From an uncultured Alphaproteobacteria bacterium (GTDB lineage: Bacteria > Pseudomonadota > Alphaproteobacteria > Rs-D84): 64,000 nt of DNA. The position numbers and the translations under genes were made by a program. The notes under the pieces were generated by a model. That model was not told the DNA's origin. It saw only the letters and a program-made list of their open reading frames with translations, and ran no database searches. Below, piece by piece: positions 357-60,560 of this stretch; the first letter of the stretch is position 1, and each line of letters opens with the position of its first letter. Location of the stretch: assembly GCA_947053455.1 (NCBI GenBank), contig CAMRSV010000001.1, forward strand, positions 113,010-177,009, read 5' to 3'.

Positions 357-2138
357 ATGAACCTGTTTGATTCATCTTTTCTGTGTCTTGACATCGGGAC
401 AAGCGGCGTTCGCGGCATTGCACACCGAATAAAATCGGGTCAGATTGACAAGTCCGCGGTATTTTCAATACAAAGCCCGGACATCGCATTCGCATTGATG
501 TCAGTGGTTGACGAATTGGAACGCCAAATCGGGGTTCATTTTGATTCTGCCTTTGTTACCGGAAATTTTGGAAATGCCGCATTTGACATATCGTTAAAAA
601 GCATACGCTGGTCTGGGGAACATAAAATAACACCCGCCGACATTAAAATGCAGGCTTCACAAATAACACCACCGGACGGTTTTTTCCCCATGCACATAAT
701 ACCGCTGCGATATGATACGCCCGGGGCACGAAACATGGACAGTCCAATTGGCCACACGGATAGACAACTGATGTCTATATTTTCATCAATATCATATGCA
801 CACGCCAGACTGGACAAAATCCAGGCGGCATTGCGCCGCGCGCATATCCAGGCCAACGGATTCTATGACCCGCAATTTTTAATGAACGCCACCATACGTC
901 AAAAAAAGCAGGTTGCAATGTTCATTGATTTTGGCAATGAATTCGTATCTGCATCCATCTGGACGGATCGCGGACCTGTGTGGCTTGAAAAATTTCCAAA
1001 TGGCGGCGGTGAAATCACAACCGCAATTTCAGAAAAAATGCAAATAGACCCGACAGAGGCCACACGCATCAAACACGCCAGCATCAGCATGATACCACGC
1101 GAAATGGATAGGTTCACACCGGCCGATACCGCGTATGAATTTTCACGCGCTGACATTTGCGAAATTGCGGTTCCGCATATCATGAACACAATCGCCGCCA
1201 TACTTGAGGCGGCCAGCAGCGTTCTGGAAAAATACAAACCGTCCCTAATAACAATATGCGGTGGCGGCGCAGAAATCGACGGTATTTCAGACGTAATTGA
1301 AAGCGCCTTTGGAATAAAAGTTGACGTCGCACCGCCGGATGCGGTTGTACGTGCATTGTCAAATTACATATGGAATTGCGAAGAGGCACACCGCCAAGCC
1401 TATTCGGCCAGGCGCGAAAAATTAGCGCGTTATAAAGAAAAAATAACAAAATTATTTCACCGCCGCCGTATCAAAAAACGCACACGTTTCATCCCGATTT
1501 TGCCAAGCACACTGTGCTTTAACATGAAAAGTCCGGTAACATATTCACTGTTTCAGTCGGGCGGAATATCTATGATTCATGTCGATATAATGGATGGCCT
1601 TTATGTTGACCGCATTGCGGGCGGAATTGATGAACTAAAATATATTCGGGCACACACACGTGCACATCTTCATGTCCATTTAATGACCGAAAGCCCGGGT
1701 GTCTGGGCGGCGGACGCGGCGGCGGCGGGCGCGAACACAATAATATTATCGACAAACACATCGGGATTGCGCGCCGCGCTGCGCGCAGTGCGTGCGGGCG
1801 GCCGACGGGCGGGCGTCGCACTTAACCCCGATTCACCTGTTTCATTATTAAAACCGATTTTACGTGATGTGGATGAAATAATGGTGATGACTGTCGCCCC
1901 TGGTGCGGCAGGTCAGGCGTTTCATCCCGAATGCCTACATAAAATATCTGTACTGGCGGCGACACGCAAAAAATATGGATTAAAATTTACAATATCCGTG
2001 GACGGCGGAATAAACGACAAAACGGCGCCCCTATGCTGGGAGGCTGGTGCCGACCTGCTGGTTAGCGGTTCATACCTGGCACGCAGTTCTGATTTTCCAC
2101 TTGCGGTCCAAAGCCTGCTAAAGAAAAGCGGTGATTAA
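357..2138 (+). CDS. FtsA-like actin-fold ATPase (about aa 1-365) fused in-frame to ribulose-phosphate 3-epimerase (about aa 375-593)
   Basis: N-terminal LCLDIGTSGVRG and ITICGGGAEIDGI motifs are typical of FtsA/PilM actin-like ATPases. The C-terminus has the Rpe hallmarks IHVDIMDG, HLHVHLMTESP, MVMTVAPGAAGQAF and ISVDGGIN. It is a single ORF with no stop between the domains. An in-frame ATG at 1524 could also give a stand-alone Rpe of about 204 aa. Confidence 0.6.
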   Translation: MNLFDSSFLCLDIGTSGVRGIAHRIKSGQIDKSAVFSIQSPDIAFALMSVVDELERQIGVHFDSAFVTGNFGNAAFDISLKSIRWSGEHKITPADIKMQASQITPPDGFFPMHIIPLRYDTPGARNMDSPIGHTDRQLMSIFSSISYAHARLDKIQAALRRAHIQANGFYDPQFLMNATIRQKKQVAMFIDFGNEFVSASIWTDRGPVWLEKFPNGGGEITTAISEKMQIDPTEATRIKHASISMIPREMDRFTPADTAYEFSRADICEIAVPHIMNTIAAILEAASSVLEKYKPSLITICGGGAEIDGISDVIESAFGIKVDVAPPDAVVRALSNYIWNCEEAHRQAYSARREKLARYKEKITKLFHRRRIKKRTRFIPILPSTLCFNMKSPVTYSLFQSGGISMIHVDIMDGLYVDRIAGGIDELKYIRAHTRAHLHVHLMTESPGVWAADAAAAGANTIILSTNTSGLRAALRAVRAGGRRAGVALNPDSPVSLLKPILRDVDEIMVMTVAPGAAGQAFHPECLHKISVLAATRKKYGLKFTISVDGGINDKTAPLCWEAGADLLVSGSYLARSSDFPLAVQSLLKKSGD

Positions 2139-2165: not shown

Positions 2166-2439
2166 AACAATGCTCTTTTCTGAACTCATCTGAATTCAAA
2201 TGAATCCATAGGGATGTGGGTTCGGGACTATAAAAGCCCTCGATTAGGCAGTGCTCGCATGCGTTATTTATCCGCACGGTTGCATTCGCAACAAAAGCAC
2301 TATGACCCATATTTAATGAAAATATAACAAGTACCTTTTCCCAGGAAACATTGCAACGCTTGTATTTTTTTATTCGTTCTGATAGCATAACAATGAAACC
2401 AAATGGGATATGGTTTTAGGACCGTTAGAAAGTCCTTGA

Positions 2440-2638
2440 TTCGACGGCGCATTGCGCGCTGGTTTTTGCGTCGGTGTTTTTTAACGCCGATGGTTCCTGA
2501 CATTTATCCTGGTCAGGAAGCTGCTGTCATACAACAGGGATTACCCGAAAGCAGCAGGGTCATTTCGAATCATGATTTTCTAAACTTCCTGACCGCCGAT
2601 TCCCATGGCGGTTTCTTCGTTAAACCAAGGAAGATATC
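2440..2638 (+). promoter_or_regulatory. Structured 5' leader (attenuator-like) upstream of the Cys-rich secreted protein gene
   Basis: Three elements: TTCCTGAC (2494-2501), GGTCAGGAAG (2511-2520) and CTTCCTGACC (2585-2594). The middle element can pair with either outer one. The third overlaps the left arm of the hairpin CCGCC-gattcccat-GGCGG + TTTCTTCG (2593-2619), 20 nt before the ATG. Confidence 0.5.
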
Positions 2639-3076
2639 ATGAAAAAAACTGTTACATTTTCGTTATTGTTACTAGGCACCATTTCAACAAACGCATTTGC
2701 TATCGTACGGCCCGATTGCAATGATAATACAACATGTTTTGATATAACAAATGGTCAAAGATGTACTACAGTATGCCCGACCTGTGACCAAGTAACACTT
2801 GGATGCCCATGCTGCATCGAATACGATACCACCGTATCCTGTACCTGCAATTCCGGGTATCATTCGGCGACAAATGCCACATATGGATGCGAATGCAAAA
2901 AAAATTGCGCCGCCGGATATTATGGTGATGGCACAACGTGCACAAAATGTCCAACACCCGGCACAACAACCGGATATGCACAAACCATCACAGATTGCTA
3001 TGTACCACAAAACACATCGGTAACAGATTCAAGCGGCACATATAACTATTCTAGCAATTGTAAGTACAATCTATGA
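2639..3076 (+). CDS. Small secreted Cys-rich protein, paralog family member 1
   Basis: Signal peptide MKKTVTFSLLLLGTISTNAFA and about 20 Cys. Shares C.AGYY..G..C..CP and C-terminal Y.Y[ST].NC.Y motifs with 58647-58913. Confidence 0.7.
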   Translation: MKKTVTFSLLLLGTISTNAFAIVRPDCNDNTTCFDITNGQRCTTVCPTCDQVTLGCPCCIEYDTTVSCTCNSGYHSATNATYGCECKKNCAAGYYGDGTTCTKCPTPGTTTGYAQTITDCYVPQNTSVTDSSGTYNYSSNCKYNL

Positions 3077-10592: not shown

Positions 10593-10868
10593 TTATTTCC
10601 CGCGATACGCATCGGCGTCATCGCCCCAATACCACGCGGGGATGCCGTATGTAAATATAAATATTAAAAATACTGTCGGAAATGGGGCACAGCCGGATTC
10701 TATATCCCGCAATTTTTCGACCGTTATACCAATGTCACGCGCAAACTGTTCCAACGATATTTGTGAATTTTCACGTATACTGCGGAAAAGTTCACCCGGC
10801 GGCATCCCGGTATCTTCTAGTGATACCAGTTTTTTTATCCCCGCCATTATATCGGCATTGTTGGTCAT
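10593..10868 (-). CDS. XRE-family helix-turn-helix transcriptional regulator, with a hydrophobic C-terminal tail
   Basis: Cro/C1-type HTH signature ISLEQFARDIGITVEKLRDIESG. Start chosen at MTNNADIM (ATG 10868). Confidence 0.5.
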   Translation of the reverse strand: MTNNADIMAGIKKLVSLEDTGMPPGELFRSIRENSQISLEQFARDIGITVEKLRDIESGCAPFPTVFLIFIFTYGIPAWYWGDDADAYRGK

Positions 10869-10917
10869 GTTTATACCCCCGTTGTGCAAAAACAAAAACC
10901 ACCGAAAAATTTCAAGT

Positions 10918-11060
10918 GGTTGGAGGTTCACGACTATGTAAGAAATAGTGTATGTGTATTCAATATATTTTCACATACCCTCCAACCTAGGATTGGAGAG
11001 ATAGTTTTTTGTCTTATCTAGACATCTTACGCGGAGTCGTGAAACTCCGTGATGGAATTA
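10918..11060. repeat. Structured repeat unit A (long hairpin GGTTGGAGG...CCTCCAACC plus a second hairpin)
   Basis: Near-duplicate of 11122-11245. Second hairpin is GGAGTcgtgaaACTCC. Confidence 0.6.
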
Positions 11061-11121
11061 CCATCAATGATTATTATAGTATATTAGGGAAAAATATCAA
11101 TAAAAAAACCGCTTTATTGCG

Positions 11122-11245
11122 GTTGGAGGTTCACAACTATCGTAAGAAATAGTGTCGTTTATTCATATATATCACGACCCTCCAACCATGGTTGAAGTTT
11201 CTCTTACGAGGGGTTGTGACACCCCACCGATGGAATACCCTTCGG
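11122..11245. repeat. Structured repeat unit B
   Basis: GGTTGGAGGTTCACAACTATCGTAAGAAATAGTGT...CCTCCAACC. The second hairpin GGGGttgtgacaCCCC differs from unit A but keeps pairing. Confidence 0.6.
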
Positions 11246-11286
11246 CACAATTATTATATCAACACAAAAATCAAATTGCAAATTTA

Positions 11287-13836: not shown

Positions 13837-15372
13837 TTATTCCTCGTCTTGAGTAATGTTATAAACCACCTCGCGAGCCTTCATAATTATACGCGCAGCC
13901 AACCGCGGTGACATTGCGTCTTCGCCCAGAATTTCAATCAGTTCATCAGACGCCAAATCCGCCAGGTCTTCCAGGGACTTTATTCCAGCACGCCCCAGCG
14001 CCATAATTGTGGGCCGCTTTATAAAATCAAACTCCAGCAAATCGTCCTTCATCCCCATCGCATGGCCTTCGTCTTTGTAATCCTGCTCGATTTTGGCCAG
14101 ATAATCCTTGGCACGCTTTTGCAGTTCTGATGCCAGTTCCGCATTGAATCCCTCAATCGCGGTAAGTTCTGCCTCATCAACAAATGCGATTTCTTCGATT
14201 GTGCGGAACCCTTCGGTAATCAGCAGGTGCGCAATCATTTCATCAACATCCAATCCCTTTATAAACAGTTCTGTCTTTTCCTTGAATTCATTGGCGCGGC
14301 GTTCCTGTTCGGTCTGTTCGTTCATGACGTCAATGTTCCATCCCGTCAGTTGGGACGCCAATCGCACGTTCTGCCCGCGACGACCGATGGCCAATGATTG
14401 CTGGTCATCATTTACAACAACGGCCGCTGTGCGTGTGTCTTCATCGACGATAATTTTTGCAACTTTGGCCGGCTGCATCGCATTTACAATGAACACCGCC
14501 GGGTCTTCGGAATATAAAATAACGTCGATTTTTTCACCATGACATTCGTTAATAACCGGCTGAATACGTGTACCCTTGATACCGACCGTCATGCCGACTG
14601 CATCAATTGACGGATCCTGGGTTTCAACGGCGATTTTCGCGTGCGAACCCGGTGCACGTGCAACAGATTTGATTTTGATTATGCCCTCGTAAATTTCGGG
14701 TACTTCCTGAACAAACAGTTTTTCCATAAACATAGGATGCGTACGGGTCAGGAAAATCTGCGGACCGGAATTGGAACGCGCAACATCCATAATCAGCGCG
14801 CGCACACGGTCACCCACCGCTAGGCGTTCGCCCGGTATCAATTCAGTGCCCTTGATATACCCTTCGGCCTTGCCGTTAATGTCAACAAATATATTGCCGA
14901 ATTCTACACGCTTTACAACACCGGATACAATATCACCGATATTATCTTTGAATTCTTCGTACTGGCGCCCCTTTTCTGCGTCGCGCACGCGTGCTGTCAT
15001 TATCTGGCGCGCGGTCTGGAACGCCATACGGCCAAATTCTGGTTCCGGCAACGGATCTTCAACAAATTCACCAATAATTGGGTTTTTAGAATACTTTTTA
15101 GCCTGCGCAACCGTCAACATTGTGTTAGCATCATATTCTTCAACAGATTGCGGGGATTCAATAACCTCGAACAAGCGTTTAACATAAATCGCACCGTTTT
15201 TACGGTCAATATGCGCCGTGATATTGAACTCTTCGCCATACTTGTGCTTGGCGATTTTGGCGATTGCCGCCTCTAATGATTCTATAACAATTTCACGGTC
15301 TATCAGTTTTTCCTGGGCCAGGGAATCGATAGCCAGCAGCAAATCCTGACGGGGCATTGAAACAAAAGACAT
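13837..15372 (-). CDS. nusA: Transcription termination/antitermination factor NusA
   Basis: 511 aa with S1 and KH domains. Conserved order nusA-infB. Confidence 0.85.
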   Translation of the reverse strand: MSFVSMPRQDLLLAIDSLAQEKLIDREIVIESLEAAIAKIAKHKYGEEFNITAHIDRKNGAIYVKRLFEVIESPQSVEEYDANTMLTVAQAKKYSKNPIIGEFVEDPLPEPEFGRMAFQTARQIMTARVRDAEKGRQYEEFKDNIGDIVSGVVKRVEFGNIFVDINGKAEGYIKGTELIPGERLAVGDRVRALIMDVARSNSGPQIFLTRTHPMFMEKLFVQEVPEIYEGIIKIKSVARAPGSHAKIAVETQDPSIDAVGMTVGIKGTRIQPVINECHGEKIDVILYSEDPAVFIVNAMQPAKVAKIIVDEDTRTAAVVVNDDQQSLAIGRRGQNVRLASQLTGWNIDVMNEQTEQERRANEFKEKTELFIKGLDVDEMIAHLLITEGFRTIEEIAFVDEAELTAIEGFNAELASELQKRAKDYLAKIEQDYKDEGHAMGMKDDLLEFDFIKRPTIMALGRAGIKSLEDLADLASDELIEILGEDAMSPRLAARIIMKAREVVYNITQDEE

Positions 15373-58617: not shown

Positions 58618-58652
58618 TAAAAAACACCGGCATTTGCCGGTGTTTTTTAATT
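58618..58652. repeat. Palindromic terminator-repeat family, copy 4
   Basis: AAAAAACACCGGCatttGCCGGTGTTTTTTAAT between parB and the Cys-rich gene. Confidence 0.7.
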
Positions 58653-58913
58653 AGAATAATTGCAGTTTGCCGTGTATTGGAAATCACCGGTTGAATCTGA
58701 TTTCTGGGTGCCTGATGGCAGATAGCAGGCGGTCTTGCCGGTTTTATTTCGGTCGGCAGATGTGCCGCCATCCGGACAGGGCAGGCATTGGCCGTTTTCA
58801 AGGTAATATCCCGCCTTGCATGCGGTATAAGATATTGGGTTTGCAACGCAGGCGGCATATGCTATGCCAGGCCCCATGGCAAATAAAACAAAAAATAATG
58901 ATTTTTTTAGCAT
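58647..58913 (-). CDS. Small secreted Cys-rich protein, paralog family member 2
   Basis: Signal peptide ending AYA. CKAGYYLENGQCLPCPDGGTS and DFQYTANCNYSN align with 2639-3076. Confidence 0.65.
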   Translation of the reverse strand: MLKKSLFFVLFAMGPGIAYAACVANPISYTACKAGYYLENGQCLPCPDGGTSADRNKTGKTACYLPSGTQKSDSTGDFQYTANCNYSN

Positions 58914-58934: not shown

Positions 58935-59300
58935 TTAAATTTTGTCCCCAGGATAAAGATAGCTGCATATAAAACATTTATTTATGCCTCCTGGCGTGTG
59001 GTTTGTATAGTAAAAGCATGTTTCTCTTGATGGGGTTGCAGCGCATGTGCCATATGTTTGCGAGTAATATCCCTTATTATCGCTGGTTTCCCGGTCTTTT
59101 ATACGCGTGCAGGTGTTTCCGGTCAATGATAATATCCAGCCAGTTGGGCAAGAGTATGTTGTTTCTGTTTCCAGACTCGGGCAACAATAACCGCTTTCTT
59201 TATTAGCGCAGCATTCTAATTGATCTGGGCATGTTAACGAGGCTTGTGCTGTTGTAATAAATGCAAACGCAAGAATAAAAAACGGTATAAATTTTGTCAT
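58935..59300 (-). CDS. Small secreted Cys-rich protein, divergent family member 3
   Basis: Signal peptide ending AQA. 14 Cys. GYY..x..G.C element. Confidence 0.55.
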   Translation of the reverse strand: MTKFIPFFILAFAFITTAQASLTCPDQLECCANKESGYCCPSLETETTYSCPTGWILSLTGNTCTRIKDRETSDNKGYYSQTYGTCAATPSRETCFYYTNHTPGGINKCFICSYLYPGDKI

Positions 59301-59599: not shown

Positions 59600-60560
59600 A
59601 AAGCTTTGTCAATTTTATTTTAGTAAAATGTATAAAAATACCGGTTTTCTGCGGTTTTTAGAAATTTCTTGAATCGTTTCAAAGGATTTTTGCGGGTACA
59701 TATTGCCGTGTTTGTCGGCGCAAAAACAGCCATATTTCAGGTGTTTTTTTGCCATATTATAGTGTGCTTTTGTGGGGTATAAATCTTGCTATATGATAAG
59801 CGGATTTATCTAAAATGTATATGGCGTTATTGCATGACTGTGTGGTGGCGTTTTTTTTATCAAATGGTTGTGTCATGATGGCTTTTTATTAGTAATTCTT
59901 TATAAAACATATGTTTTTTAAGGCCTAATGTACGGTTAAAATACAATTTTTTGCGTATGATTTTGTTATAAAATTGTCGGCAAATACCGGTATTTTAATT
60001 TATAAAATATCTATATCGATAGATATATGCAAAATGTGAGTGTATTTTGTTAATTTTTAATAAAATGCCGATTTGAAAAAGCCGTTTTTCTTGTGCGGTT
60101 CATGATTGGATGCTAAAAAAATATAAAATAATATTAAAAAAAGCATGCTTGTTGATGATGAAATTTCCGTAAATATTACCGCATTTCTTAAACATTTGCC
60201 AAATAATATATGTACCAATAATCGTGTTGTCAATAAAAAAGACCTTTTTGTTATTTCATTGTATTTTTTAGTCTAAATAAGTATAATGATTCTATGATTT
60301 TTTTCAGGTTTTCTGCGGCTTGTAGGGATTTATTGCAAAGTTATAGTGATGTAGGGTAAAGATAATACCGGTACATATTGCCGTGTTTGTCAACCTGTTT
60401 TTTGTGGTTTTTAGGGAAAAAGTTGTATTACTTATTTGTTGTCTTGAATTTATTGTCAATATTGTTAAATAGATTGCGTATTTTATATGGTTATGTGTGG
60501 TTTTTAGGACTGTGTTGGGTATTTATTTATCTTTAATATGTCATCAATGGGGATTGGCAT
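59600..60560. repeat. Repeat-rich AT-rich non-coding tract with degenerate direct repeats
   Basis: Exact 21-bp repeat GTACATATTGCCGTGTTTGTC at 59699 and 60374. Recurring TTTTCTGCGG, GTGGTTTTTAGG and TACCGGTA motifs. No ORF with coding character. Confidence 0.5.

Follow-up and report, generated by a model that had tools for sequence, protein, structure and literature searches.

The stretch analysed here, referred to below as the window, is 64,000 nt of DNA from an uncultured Alphaproteobacteria bacterium of the Rs-D84 lineage (GenBank assembly GCA_947053455.1, contig CAMRSV010000001.1, positions 113,010 to 177,009 of the forward strand). It carries four copies of an RNA leader in which three short elements could pair in mutually exclusive ways: copy 1 at locus 1 (2396-2638, + strand), copy 2 at locus 2 (59524-59301, − strand), and a tandem pair, copies 3a and 3b (11246-10869, − strand). 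An initial annotation of the sequence had flagged 199 nt in front of the gene at locus 1, together with a similar second locus, and had proposed terminator/antiterminator logic in a family-specific element. Both ideas held up, as the layout was found in at least 107 copies, el1, el2 and el3 (the three elements) change jointly, and the terminator stem covaries. The flagged 199 nt turned out to be just the 3' half of a leader of about 240 nt, whose missing 5' half pairs with the 3' half through two strongly covarying long-range helices.

Organization of the leader at locus 1

Upstream of copy 1 we read a promoter with a −35 box TTGTAT (2360-2365), a 17-nt spacer and a −10 box TAGCAT (2383-2388); a TATAAT-like box occupies the equivalent position in a family alignment of 83 sequences (A2). 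Since promoters could be located at both locus 1 and locus 2, the length of each leader is set at about 225-245 nt. The 5' end forms hairpin H1 (AAACCA/UGGUUU, 2396-2416), followed by hairpin H2 (AGGAC/GUCCU, 2418-2436). The H2 loop UUAGAAA (2425-2431) is the 5' strand of a first long-range pairing (PK1), and the linker behind it, GAUUCGA (2438-2444), is that of a second (PK2). Helix H3 (2442-2473) joins CGACG (2442-2446) to CGUCG (2469-2473) and encloses a first terminator-like hairpin, T1 (2445-2461, U-run 2463-2467), detected by the terminator scan. H1 and H3 both show family covariation. An extra hairpin at 2469-2492 of locus 1 competes with the 3' strand of H3.

The three elements lie where they had been annotated, namely TTCCTGAC at 2494-2501, GGTCAGGAAG at 2511-2520 and CTTCCTGACC at 2585-2594. 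Element el2 (GGUCAGGAAG) resembles a Shine-Dalgarno (SD) sequence and can take either of the other two as its partner. With el1 (UUCCUGAC), its upstream complement, it would form a competing helix, making el1 an anti-antiterminator; with el3 (CUUCCUGACC) it forms P1, of which el2 is the 5' strand and el3 the 3' strand. Between the strands of P1 lie P2 (CUGCUG/CAGCAG) and P3 (GGUCAU/AUGAUU), which span 2521-2577 in the alignment to Rfam model RF02221. P2 contains an internal loop (UCAUACAACA...GAAAG) and an apical hairpin GGG-AUUA-CCC. The P3 loop UCGAAUC (2565-2571) provides the 3' strand of PK2, complementary to the linker, and the junction strand J3/1, UUUCUAA (2577-2583), provides that of PK1, complementary to the H2 loop.

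The hairpin CCGCC-n9-GGCGG reported in the initial annotation is present, and the terminator scan extends its stem to GACCGCC/GGCGGTT (2591-2613, 8 pairs). The U-rich run TTTCTTCG ends at 2619, leaving 20 nt to the ATG at 2639. We named this second terminator-like structure T2 (GACCGCC-n9-GGCGGUU plus U-rich UUUCUUCG, 2591-2619); its first four bases are the 3' GACC of el3. The 5' part of el3, CUUCCU, is an anti-Shine-Dalgarno sequence, and in the minimum free energy fold of locus 1 it is paired with AGGAAG of the Shine-Dalgarno sequence AAGGAAG (2627-2633), which together with the ATG (2627-2641 in all) starts the gene of a 145-aa Cys-rich signal-peptide protein. The leaders of locus 1 and locus 2 both fold more stably than their shuffles, with z = −4.2 and −2.5, respectively.

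As the initial annotation had stated, the layout recurs at the second locus with a different hairpin: the order of parts is the same, on the minus strand, and the terminator stem reads GACCACC/GGUGGUU against GACCGCC/GGCGGUU at locus 1, a compensated change. The 8-mer TCCTGACC occurs six times on either strand of the window (0.62 expected; none of 100 shuffles reached six), and five of the six occurrences fall within the two loci. The sixth, at 14746, lies within a coding region and was set aside as a chance match. In strain L007 (GCA_964017585.1, 96% identical; L numbers denote loci outside the window), eight differences from the window are found in the 63 nt of 2295-2357, of which 2349 and 2356-2357 are close to the −35 box, and from 2359 to the ATG (2359-2638) there is a single 1-nt indel.

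The leader family and the genes downstream

We scanned species-representative genomes with the pattern TCCTGAC-N(1-14)-GGTCAGGA-N(45-75)-TCCTGACC. More than 119 DNA stretches matched, and among the matches listed 86 are clear leaders after filtering by sequence rules. An nhmmer profile of the 3' domain, also used for the family search, returned 111 copies, four of them in the window. Pattern scan and profile search together gave at least 107 copies overall, most of them in Candidatus Enterousia-like gut Alphaproteobacteria. The 86 leaders reside in metagenome-assembled genomes (MAGs) of human, chicken and ruminant gut origin, whose labels are Candidatus Enterousia or uncultured Alphaproteobacteria/Rickettsiales. 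Copy numbers in single MAGs reach at least 12, 7, 7, 6 and 5. Candidatus Enterousia is a member of the order Rs-D84, and most of its genomes are smaller than 1 Mb (PMC12306168).

The 150 nt upstream of el1 are also conserved across the family. In the consensus, the 5' part consists of the promoter, H1, H2 (GGGG-UGUNNNNAC-CCC), a variable linker, H3, usually with T1 and its U-run, and an A-rich linker. The 3' part follows with el1, a short loop, el2, P2 with the conserved loop GAAUAUAUUGAAUAA, P3 (CAAUU..AAUUG), J3/1 (GUNNNNA) and el3 overlapping T2, and ends with a spacer of 15-40 nt, a strong Shine-Dalgarno sequence and ATG. T1 sits at the tip of H3 in most leaders (for example L016, 7045-7286, − strand).

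A recognisable downstream open reading frame (ORF) was found in 79 of the 86 leaders, usually 40-75 nt past el3, and nearly all 79 begin with what by eye looks like a signal peptide. Many of the encoded proteins are Cys-rich with Ephrin_rec_like repeats; others belong to a secreted family of about 70 aa, to Flg_new and DUF285 surface-type proteins, or, in one case, are a trypsin-like protease, and one window copy precedes an HTH regulator. No metabolic theme emerged among the downstream genes of the leaders sampled. The motif CAGG[AG]G is the Shine-Dalgarno sequence of 51% of leader genes versus 6% of background genes, and a strong Shine-Dalgarno 5-mer is found in 86% versus 19%. The end of T2 is just 20-40 nt from the start codon and therefore leaves no space for a separate promoter.

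The 145-aa protein of locus 1 (2639-3076, + strand) has just two detectable homologs among 5.8 billion clusters; this protein-homolog route led to L007 and to L008, a 45%-identical ortholog of locus 1. It is one of three small Cys-rich signal-peptide proteins of the window without a Pfam match, the others being at 58935-59300 and 58647-58913 (both − strand), and the three have in common a C-terminal motif of the type C..GYY..G..C..CP....(T/S)G.(Y/F).Y..NC.Y. The 88-aa gene at 58647-58913 follows the 121-aa gene and lacks a leader of its own.

Family leaders also occur on contigs binned as Muribaculaceae or Prevotella MAGs (CAZJGX01 contigs L070, L081, L092 and L115, and L093), most likely through binning contamination. 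Pattern matches that do not belong to the family were set aside, comprising CRISPR repeats (L036, L100), sphingomonad palindromic repeats (L040, L107, L108), a Bacteroidales element (L052, L054, L095, L126) and scattered coding-region matches. The Bacteroidales matches, from Alistipes/Rikenellaceae MAGs, are a separate conserved element, TCCTGAC-n13-GGTCAGGA-n45-AGCATACGACA-TCCTGACC-GTTCGCACGG, with the same three-element spelling and a remaining sequence unrelated to the leader family.

Covariation of the helices and two long-range pairings

We evaluated covariation on alignment A2 with a paired structure specified by the analyst. In this structure 93.7% of the cells are paired, compared with 83.7% in column shuffles and 30-52% when the partners are slid. 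Double-sided changes were observed in 6 of 7 pairs of H1, 6 of 7 pairs of H3 and 4 of 8 pairs of T2, where pair 322:346 is AU in 59 sequences and GC in 21. G.U pairs are common (60:85 is GU in 74 sequences; likewise 318:350 in 83), and therefore selection acts on the transcribed strand.

The two long-range helices covary strongly. PK1 gives the strongest signal: J3/1 and the 7-mer in the H2 loop are perfectly complementary in 76 of 82 leaders, among which 20 different 7-mers occur, against a mean of 0.095 for mismatched partners. This helix is 99.4% paired, five of its six pairs have changed on both sides, and pair 95:307 is AU in 26, GC in 25, CG in 23 and UA in 8 sequences. PK2, between the linker behind H2 and the P3 loop, was predicted by RNAalifold on the family alignment; its pair 107:298 is CG in 27, AU in 23, UA in 19 and GC in 3 sequences, and in a permutation test exact 7-mers were found in 53 of 80 leaders versus 4.5 in the control. 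All four window copies contain both pairings, which read UUAGAAA 2425-2431 : UUUCUAA 2577-2583 and GAUUCGA 2438-2444 : UCGAAUC 2565-2571 at locus 1, and CUGAGAA : UUCUCAG and UUGCAC : GUGCAA at locus 2.

Two further pairings were tried and rejected. In the first, GCGUC would act on T1 as an antiterminator by pairing with GACGC on its 5' side, which fits L016, L018 and L009 but fails in L019, L109 and L124; GCGUC (H3 5' strand) and GACGC have one compensated example, GCAUC/GAUGC in L009. In the second, the self-complementary P2 loop (AAUAUAUU) would serve for dimerisation, but the variants do not conserve this self-complementarity.

A predicted switch between two folds

The main family was fished with the exact P1 pattern, and variants came from the profile search and from a layout search for three elements that is independent of sequence. 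The el1/el2/el3 set CUCCUGACC / GGUCAGGAGG / CCUCCUGACC is present in about 90 copies and CUCCAACC / GGUUGGAGG / CCUCCAACC in about 9, including window copies 3a and 3b. Further sets are AAUCCAAC / GGUUGGAGU / ACUCCAACC and UGCCAACC / GGUUGGGG / CCCCAACC, together with AUCCCGAC / GUCGGGAU / AUCCCGGCC in L008 and the set of locus 1 given above. Judged by these sequences, the three elements change together across variants. The el1:el2 helix is systematically 1-2 bp shorter than P1. The Shine-Dalgarno sequence tracks its own el3 in the three sequences read (CUUCCU:AGGAAG, GCCUC:GAGGC, AUCCC:GGGAU), and since el3 would mask it, the switch would have a translational arm too.

The arrangement has the parts of an intrinsic-terminator attenuator: a covarying GC-rich hairpin with a U-run just 5' of the gene (2591-2619 and 59351-59321), an alternative helix el2:el3 that shares GACC with T2, and el1 competing for el2. 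We lean, by a little more than an even judgement, towards a cis-acting leader RNA of about 240 nt that works as a default-OFF switch of transcription and translation for the downstream secreted-protein gene, with two predicted folds gating termination and translation. Transcription would start about 100 nt upstream of the region flagged initially, which would be the expression platform, from the leader's own promoter. In the OFF fold, el1 would pair with el2 as a local hairpin and leave el3 free, whose 3' GACC would complete T2 and whose 5' CUUCCU/CCUCC would pair with the Shine-Dalgarno sequence. In the ON fold, P1 (el2:el3) would close a three-way junction P1/P2/P3, so that the stem of T2 loses 4 nt and the Shine-Dalgarno sequence is freed. 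Two Watson-Crick contacts, one between the H2 loop and J3/1 and the other between the linker and the P3 loop, connect the junction with the 5' domain, and docking on this domain may help the ON state. Forced-pairing energies, computed without pseudoknots, are −97.1 (OFF) and −82.4 kcal/mol (P1) at locus 1, and −78.0 and −64.0 at locus 2. OFF is taken as the default because forcing el1:el2 rather than P1 yields a fold that is 14-19 kcal/mol more stable. The shift from OFF to ON might be triggered by a protein, by processing of the RNase P type where el2 starts, or by trans-acting short RNAs released at T1/T2.

Several points weigh against this reading. P1 and P3 are invariant in the main family, and because the family was retrieved by the exact P1 pattern, the case for P1 depends on about five variant classes, which are perhaps not independent. 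As el1 and el3 are direct repeats, their covariation could have arisen by duplication or gene conversion. With OFF favoured to the calculated extent, ON would need a substantial stabiliser. Termination at T2 and masking of the Shine-Dalgarno sequence are predictions, and the reading does not account for the optional T1. RNAalifold also draws PK1 and PK2 as one nested long-range duplex with GGGG:CCUC, competing with H2, P3 and P1; the topology may therefore be either separate kissing contacts or one extended duplex engaging GGGG:CCUC.

Leader copies on the minus strand and neighbouring sequences

Copy 2 has a promoter TTTACA-17-TATAAT (59560-59532), an 11/12 match to the sigma-70 type, followed by H1 (59524-59506), H2 (59504-59488, loop CUGAGAA 59499-59493), linker UUGCAC (59486-59481) and H3/T1 (59479-59435, of which the T1 hairpin and U-run take 59464-59444). 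Then come el1 (59425-59417), el2 (59414-59405), P2 (59404-59381), P3 (59380-59364, with GUGCAA 59373-59368), J3/1 UUCUCAG (59364-59358) and el3 (59357-59348). T2 (59351-59321, hairpin 59351-59328), the Shine-Dalgarno sequence (59313-59305) and the ATG (59300) of the 121-aa Cys-rich signal-peptide protein complete the copy. Upstream, 59600-60100 is a long AT-rich intergenic region in which both strands show several promoter- and terminator-like sites and no ORF reaches 60 aa.

In the window, the nhmmer family profile matches copy 2 at 59428-59326 (E = 8e-19), copy 1 at 2495-2614 (E = 2.5e-4), copy 3a at 11187-11106 (E = 4.6e-8) and copy 3b at 10983-10896 (E = 2e-8). Copy 3a (11102-11281, − strand) consists of the promoter (11281-11253), H1 (11246-11226), H2 (11225-11210, loop UCACAAC), el1 CUUCAACC (11197-11190), el2 GGUUGGAGGG (11187-11178), J3/1 GUUGUGA (11137-11131), el3 CCUCCAACC (11129-11121) and T2 (11122-11102); its variant set is a coordinated change in all three elements, and it has no H3/T1. 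Copy 3b (10866-11100, − strand), in tandem with 3a and 5' of a 91-aa XRE-type HTH gene, has its promoter at 11100-11073, H2 at 11049-11032 (UCACGAC), el1 at 11000-10991, el2 at 10987-10978, J3/1 GUCGUGA at 10934-10928, el3 at 10926-10918, T2 at 10921-10888, the Shine-Dalgarno sequence at 10882-10876 and the ATG at 10868. T1 is missing from 3b as well and is thus an optional part.

Where the window has two full tandem leaders (11281-10866, − strand), L007 has one chimeric leader (18407-18259), apparently through inter-repeat recombination. In L041, the whole interval from el1 to el3 of a leader is deleted. Elsewhere in the window, 357-2138 (+ strand) is a single 593-aa ORF with an FtsA domain and a ribulose-phosphate 3-epimerase domain in Pfam, either an unusual fusion or the product of a missed frameshift or stop.

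Relation to sRNA-Xcc1, C4 RNA and attenuators

At gathering level, an Rfam scan of the whole window returned tRNA alone and nothing in the leaders; with E-value cutoffs, a sub-threshold match to sRNA-Xcc1 (RF02221) appeared at locus 1. Positions 2511-2602 align to the full model (1-87 of 87) with 38 bits and E = 2e-5, against a gathering score of 53. In this alignment el2:el3 corresponds to P1, and the conserved AUACAA..GAA loop is matched (AUACAAcA, GAA). L008 (31.7 bits) and L102, of a paralog type (37.4 bits), also align to the full model; like locus 1, both stay below the threshold, and canonical plasmid controls score 69-73 bits. For locus 2 and 13 family loci the E-value mode gave noise alone and no leader match. 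The nhmmer family profile links locus 1 to the main-type leaders, and in some main-type members (L039 and L081) the P2 loop contains an additional hairpin, which is also a feature of sRNA-Xcc1.

The likeness to sRNA-Xcc1 extends over a three-way junction with closing P1, P2 with an AUACAA..GAA loop and an apical hairpin, P3 and J3/1, and over the position 50-70 nt upstream of a same-strand gene. Two canonical elements on annotated plasmids are followed after about 40-50 nt by a BRO-family gene in one case and a hypothetical gene in the other. In canonical loci, too, J3/1 has its complement in the loop of an upstream hairpin, and the P3 loop has one in a linker. According to the literature, sRNA-Xcc1 was first found in a Xanthomonas campestris integron cassette and is common in prophages and plasmids; it is 88 nt long, with its 5' end at the first base of P1 (PMC2996969). 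In Xanthomonas integrons it precedes symE, in APSE it precedes an ORF6N protein, and in a Xylella genome it adjoins isrK and C4 (10.1101/2025.06.18.660453; 10.1101/2020.03.17.996009; PMC12189769).

Canonical sRNA-Xcc1 is very common in phage contigs (at least 120 loci, L132-L251 from IMG/VR; L128-L131), and we compared 108 distinct loci among the matches listed. A complement of J3/1 is present upstream in 68 of the 108 (control 8.6) and downstream, between the junction and the Shine-Dalgarno sequence, in 61 (control 6.2). For the P3 loop the corresponding counts are 84 (control 11.7) and 70 (control 6.9). Of the two upstream sites, the second lies 12-15 nt behind the first. The pairings on the upstream side are retained in Enterousia leaders, whereas the downstream copy of the address is at control level (0/84 and 3/80). 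The Rfam model spans just the central 87 nt of the phage architecture. At many phage loci a Shine-Dalgarno hairpin of the form GGAGACGUCUCC lies at the start codon.

There are further differences. The main Enterousia type, which includes locus 2, keeps P1 and P3, but its P2 is reduced to a simple hairpin whose conserved loop differs, and an el1-like competitor is non-significant in canonical phage loci (8/108 vs 3.3). Enterousia leaders are chromosomal and precede secreted-protein genes, not phage or integron genes. The literature consulted treats sRNA-Xcc1 as a small RNA, trans-acting according to its discoverers, and not as part of a longer leader.

C4 RNA of phages P1/P7 (RF01695, immI operon) is similar in being an antisense RNA with three stems within the leader of the operon it controls, and, according to PMC5320573 and PMC2864571 (the latter listing c4-a1b1), in having two short variable specificity determinants matched by complementary sites. 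Its three-copy address logic resembles el1/el2/el3 and the H2-linker / P3 loop-J3/1 pairings. According to the former source, RNase P releases C4 from a longer transcript by cleaving at a GGW motif on the 5' end of its P1 stem; el2 starts with GGU, fitting GGW, and el3 is often followed by ACCA. C4-like RNAs have undergone a large chromosomal expansion in Acinetobacter baumannii (PMC5320573). RF01695 itself gave no match in E-value-mode scans of the window leaders (E up to 10) or of the 13 family loci (E up to 0.05). The determinants of the leader are a junction strand and a hairpin loop, whereas C4 has a hairpin loop for each of its two; and where C4 masks the ribosome-binding site with its antisense loops, the leader would do so with one strand of its closing stem.

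With attenuator and riboswitch platforms, such as pT181-type antisense attenuation, the leader shares three mutually exclusive partners ending in a hairpin and U-run before the start codon, and it has an anti-Shine-Dalgarno arm in addition. It differs in the position of the competitor el1, upstream of the structured domain, and in the two long-range helices through which its platform is joined to a 5' domain. No known riboswitch class of Rfam 15 matched the window leaders or the 13 family loci. The module looks like a chromosomal derivative of a phage leader-embedded antisense RNA of the sRNA-Xcc1/c4 type, on a sequence match below the Rfam threshold. In such a derivative, the downstream antisense target of the c4 type would have been replaced by an internal switch between Shine-Dalgarno and anti-Shine-Dalgarno sequences.

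Alternative explanations

The leader might mainly be a gene for c4-like small RNAs, a reading that is compatible with a cis switch and that we find doubtful, though it is the most serious of the rivals. Termination at T1/T2 and/or an RNase P cut 5' of el2 would set two RNAs free, a decoy made up of H1, H2 and the linker and an antisense RNA made up of the three-way junction, and these would act in trans on paralogous leaders with the same two-part address, giving feedback or cross-regulation of the secreted-protein family. The 5' end of canonical 88-nt sRNA-Xcc1 and the GGW cleavage of C4, as described in the sources above, would fit this, with el2 starting GGU, as would the two terminator-like hairpins in most leaders and the common address of several paralogs within one MAG. 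So would the phage loci with upstream and downstream complements (68, 84, 61 and 70 of 108; controls 6-12), which reproduce the a1b1 / a'b' / a2b2 layout of c4. However, Enterousia leaders have no downstream a2/b2 copy, and therefore the sole partner of their antisense determinants is in the same molecule; the leaders lie directly 5' of genes whose Shine-Dalgarno sequence matches el3 in the three sequences read, and copies without T1 exist. A quite unlikely alternative, to our mind, is that the junction and 5' domain are the riboswitch aptamer for a small molecule or second messenger, whose binding stabilises P1 and switches on a secretome regulon. Such an aptamer would account for many copies per genome 5' of surface and secreted proteins, for the highly conserved P2 loop (GAAUAUAUUGAAUAA) and P3 stem in a fold with pseudoknots, and for an expression platform typical of riboswitches, and the leader matches no known riboswitch family. 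Yet the regulated genes have no common metabolic theme, their context suggests no ligand, P1 is nearly invariant, which is unusual for the closing stem of an aptamer, and the closest relatives are phage antisense-type RNAs with variable addresses. As the el2:el3 junction is related to phage-borne sRNA-Xcc1, RNA-RNA logic of the c4 type is favoured over a small-molecule sensor.

Action at the DNA level, either as the operator of a dimeric transcription factor or as remnants of a small mobile or REP-like element, would draw on el1 and el2 being a perfect inverted repeat, el3 being a direct repeat of el1, the multicopy state, and the copies merged or deleted by inter-repeat recombination (L007 versus the window; L041). 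We regard it as very improbable, since el1-el2 spacing varies from 2 to 13 nt, frequent G.U pairs would be A.C mismatches on the opposite strand, covariation spans helices 200 nt apart, and orientation and distance to promoter and start codon are fixed. We give even less credit to attenuation by a leader peptide, with a ribosome on a short ORF over el1 choosing the fold. The candidate is a 79-codon ORF at 2403-2642 (+ strand) that spans the leader, overlaps the ATG of the gene with its TGA (ATGA) and is annotated as a gene in one metagenome assembly (L006). Locus 2, though, has no leader-strand ORF of at least 60 aa; stops occur in all three frames from el1 to el3 in 63 of 86 leaders, with a stop-free frame in the other 23; two members compared by eye do not have the same frame relative to el1; and the AUG in GAUGAAAAA belongs to the H3 3' strand and is replaced by GACG in many members. 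With no conserved leader ORF in the family, a leader peptide was rejected, and the ORF at 2403-2642, which is not conserved, is probably spurious.

Implications for Enterousia and for sRNA-Xcc1

Rfam 15 has no entry for the leader family, and the literature located mentions neither the family nor the extended sRNA-Xcc1 architecture. Antisense or attenuator RNAs of the sRNA-Xcc1/c4 type embedded in leaders are already known; what appears new is the chromosomal, expanded form with its own switch of Shine-Dalgarno, anti-Shine-Dalgarno and terminator. The 108 phage loci present sRNA-Xcc1 as the middle of a longer leader with flanking complementary sites, that is, the architecture of the c4 immunity RNA of phage P1. 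This offers a concrete mechanistic hypothesis for sRNA-Xcc1, for which no mechanism is described in the literature located. With the antisense target swapped for the internal switch, the leader would be an example of a phage module rewired as a host cis-regulator.

Copies of about 230 nt, at least 12 in some Enterousia-type genomes, stand before almost every kind of secreted protein sampled, from Cys-rich repeat proteins and a protease to small secreted peptides. Given this wide spread, the leader is likely a main control point of surface presentation to the host in these unculturable gut bacteria. We also entertain, as an unlikely extension, that the leaders form an address-coded RNA network, a domesticated phage immunity circuit of the c4 type. 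Each secreted-protein gene would then be marked by an address of about 13 nt in two parts, H2 loop and linker, matched to the P3 loop and J3/1 of its own junction, and short RNAs ending at T1 or T2 would act in trans on paralogs with the same address. If true, such a network would allow coordinated or mutually exclusive expression of a variable repertoire of Cys-rich surface and secreted proteins, resembling antigenic variation, in a gut symbiont with a genome below 1 Mb.

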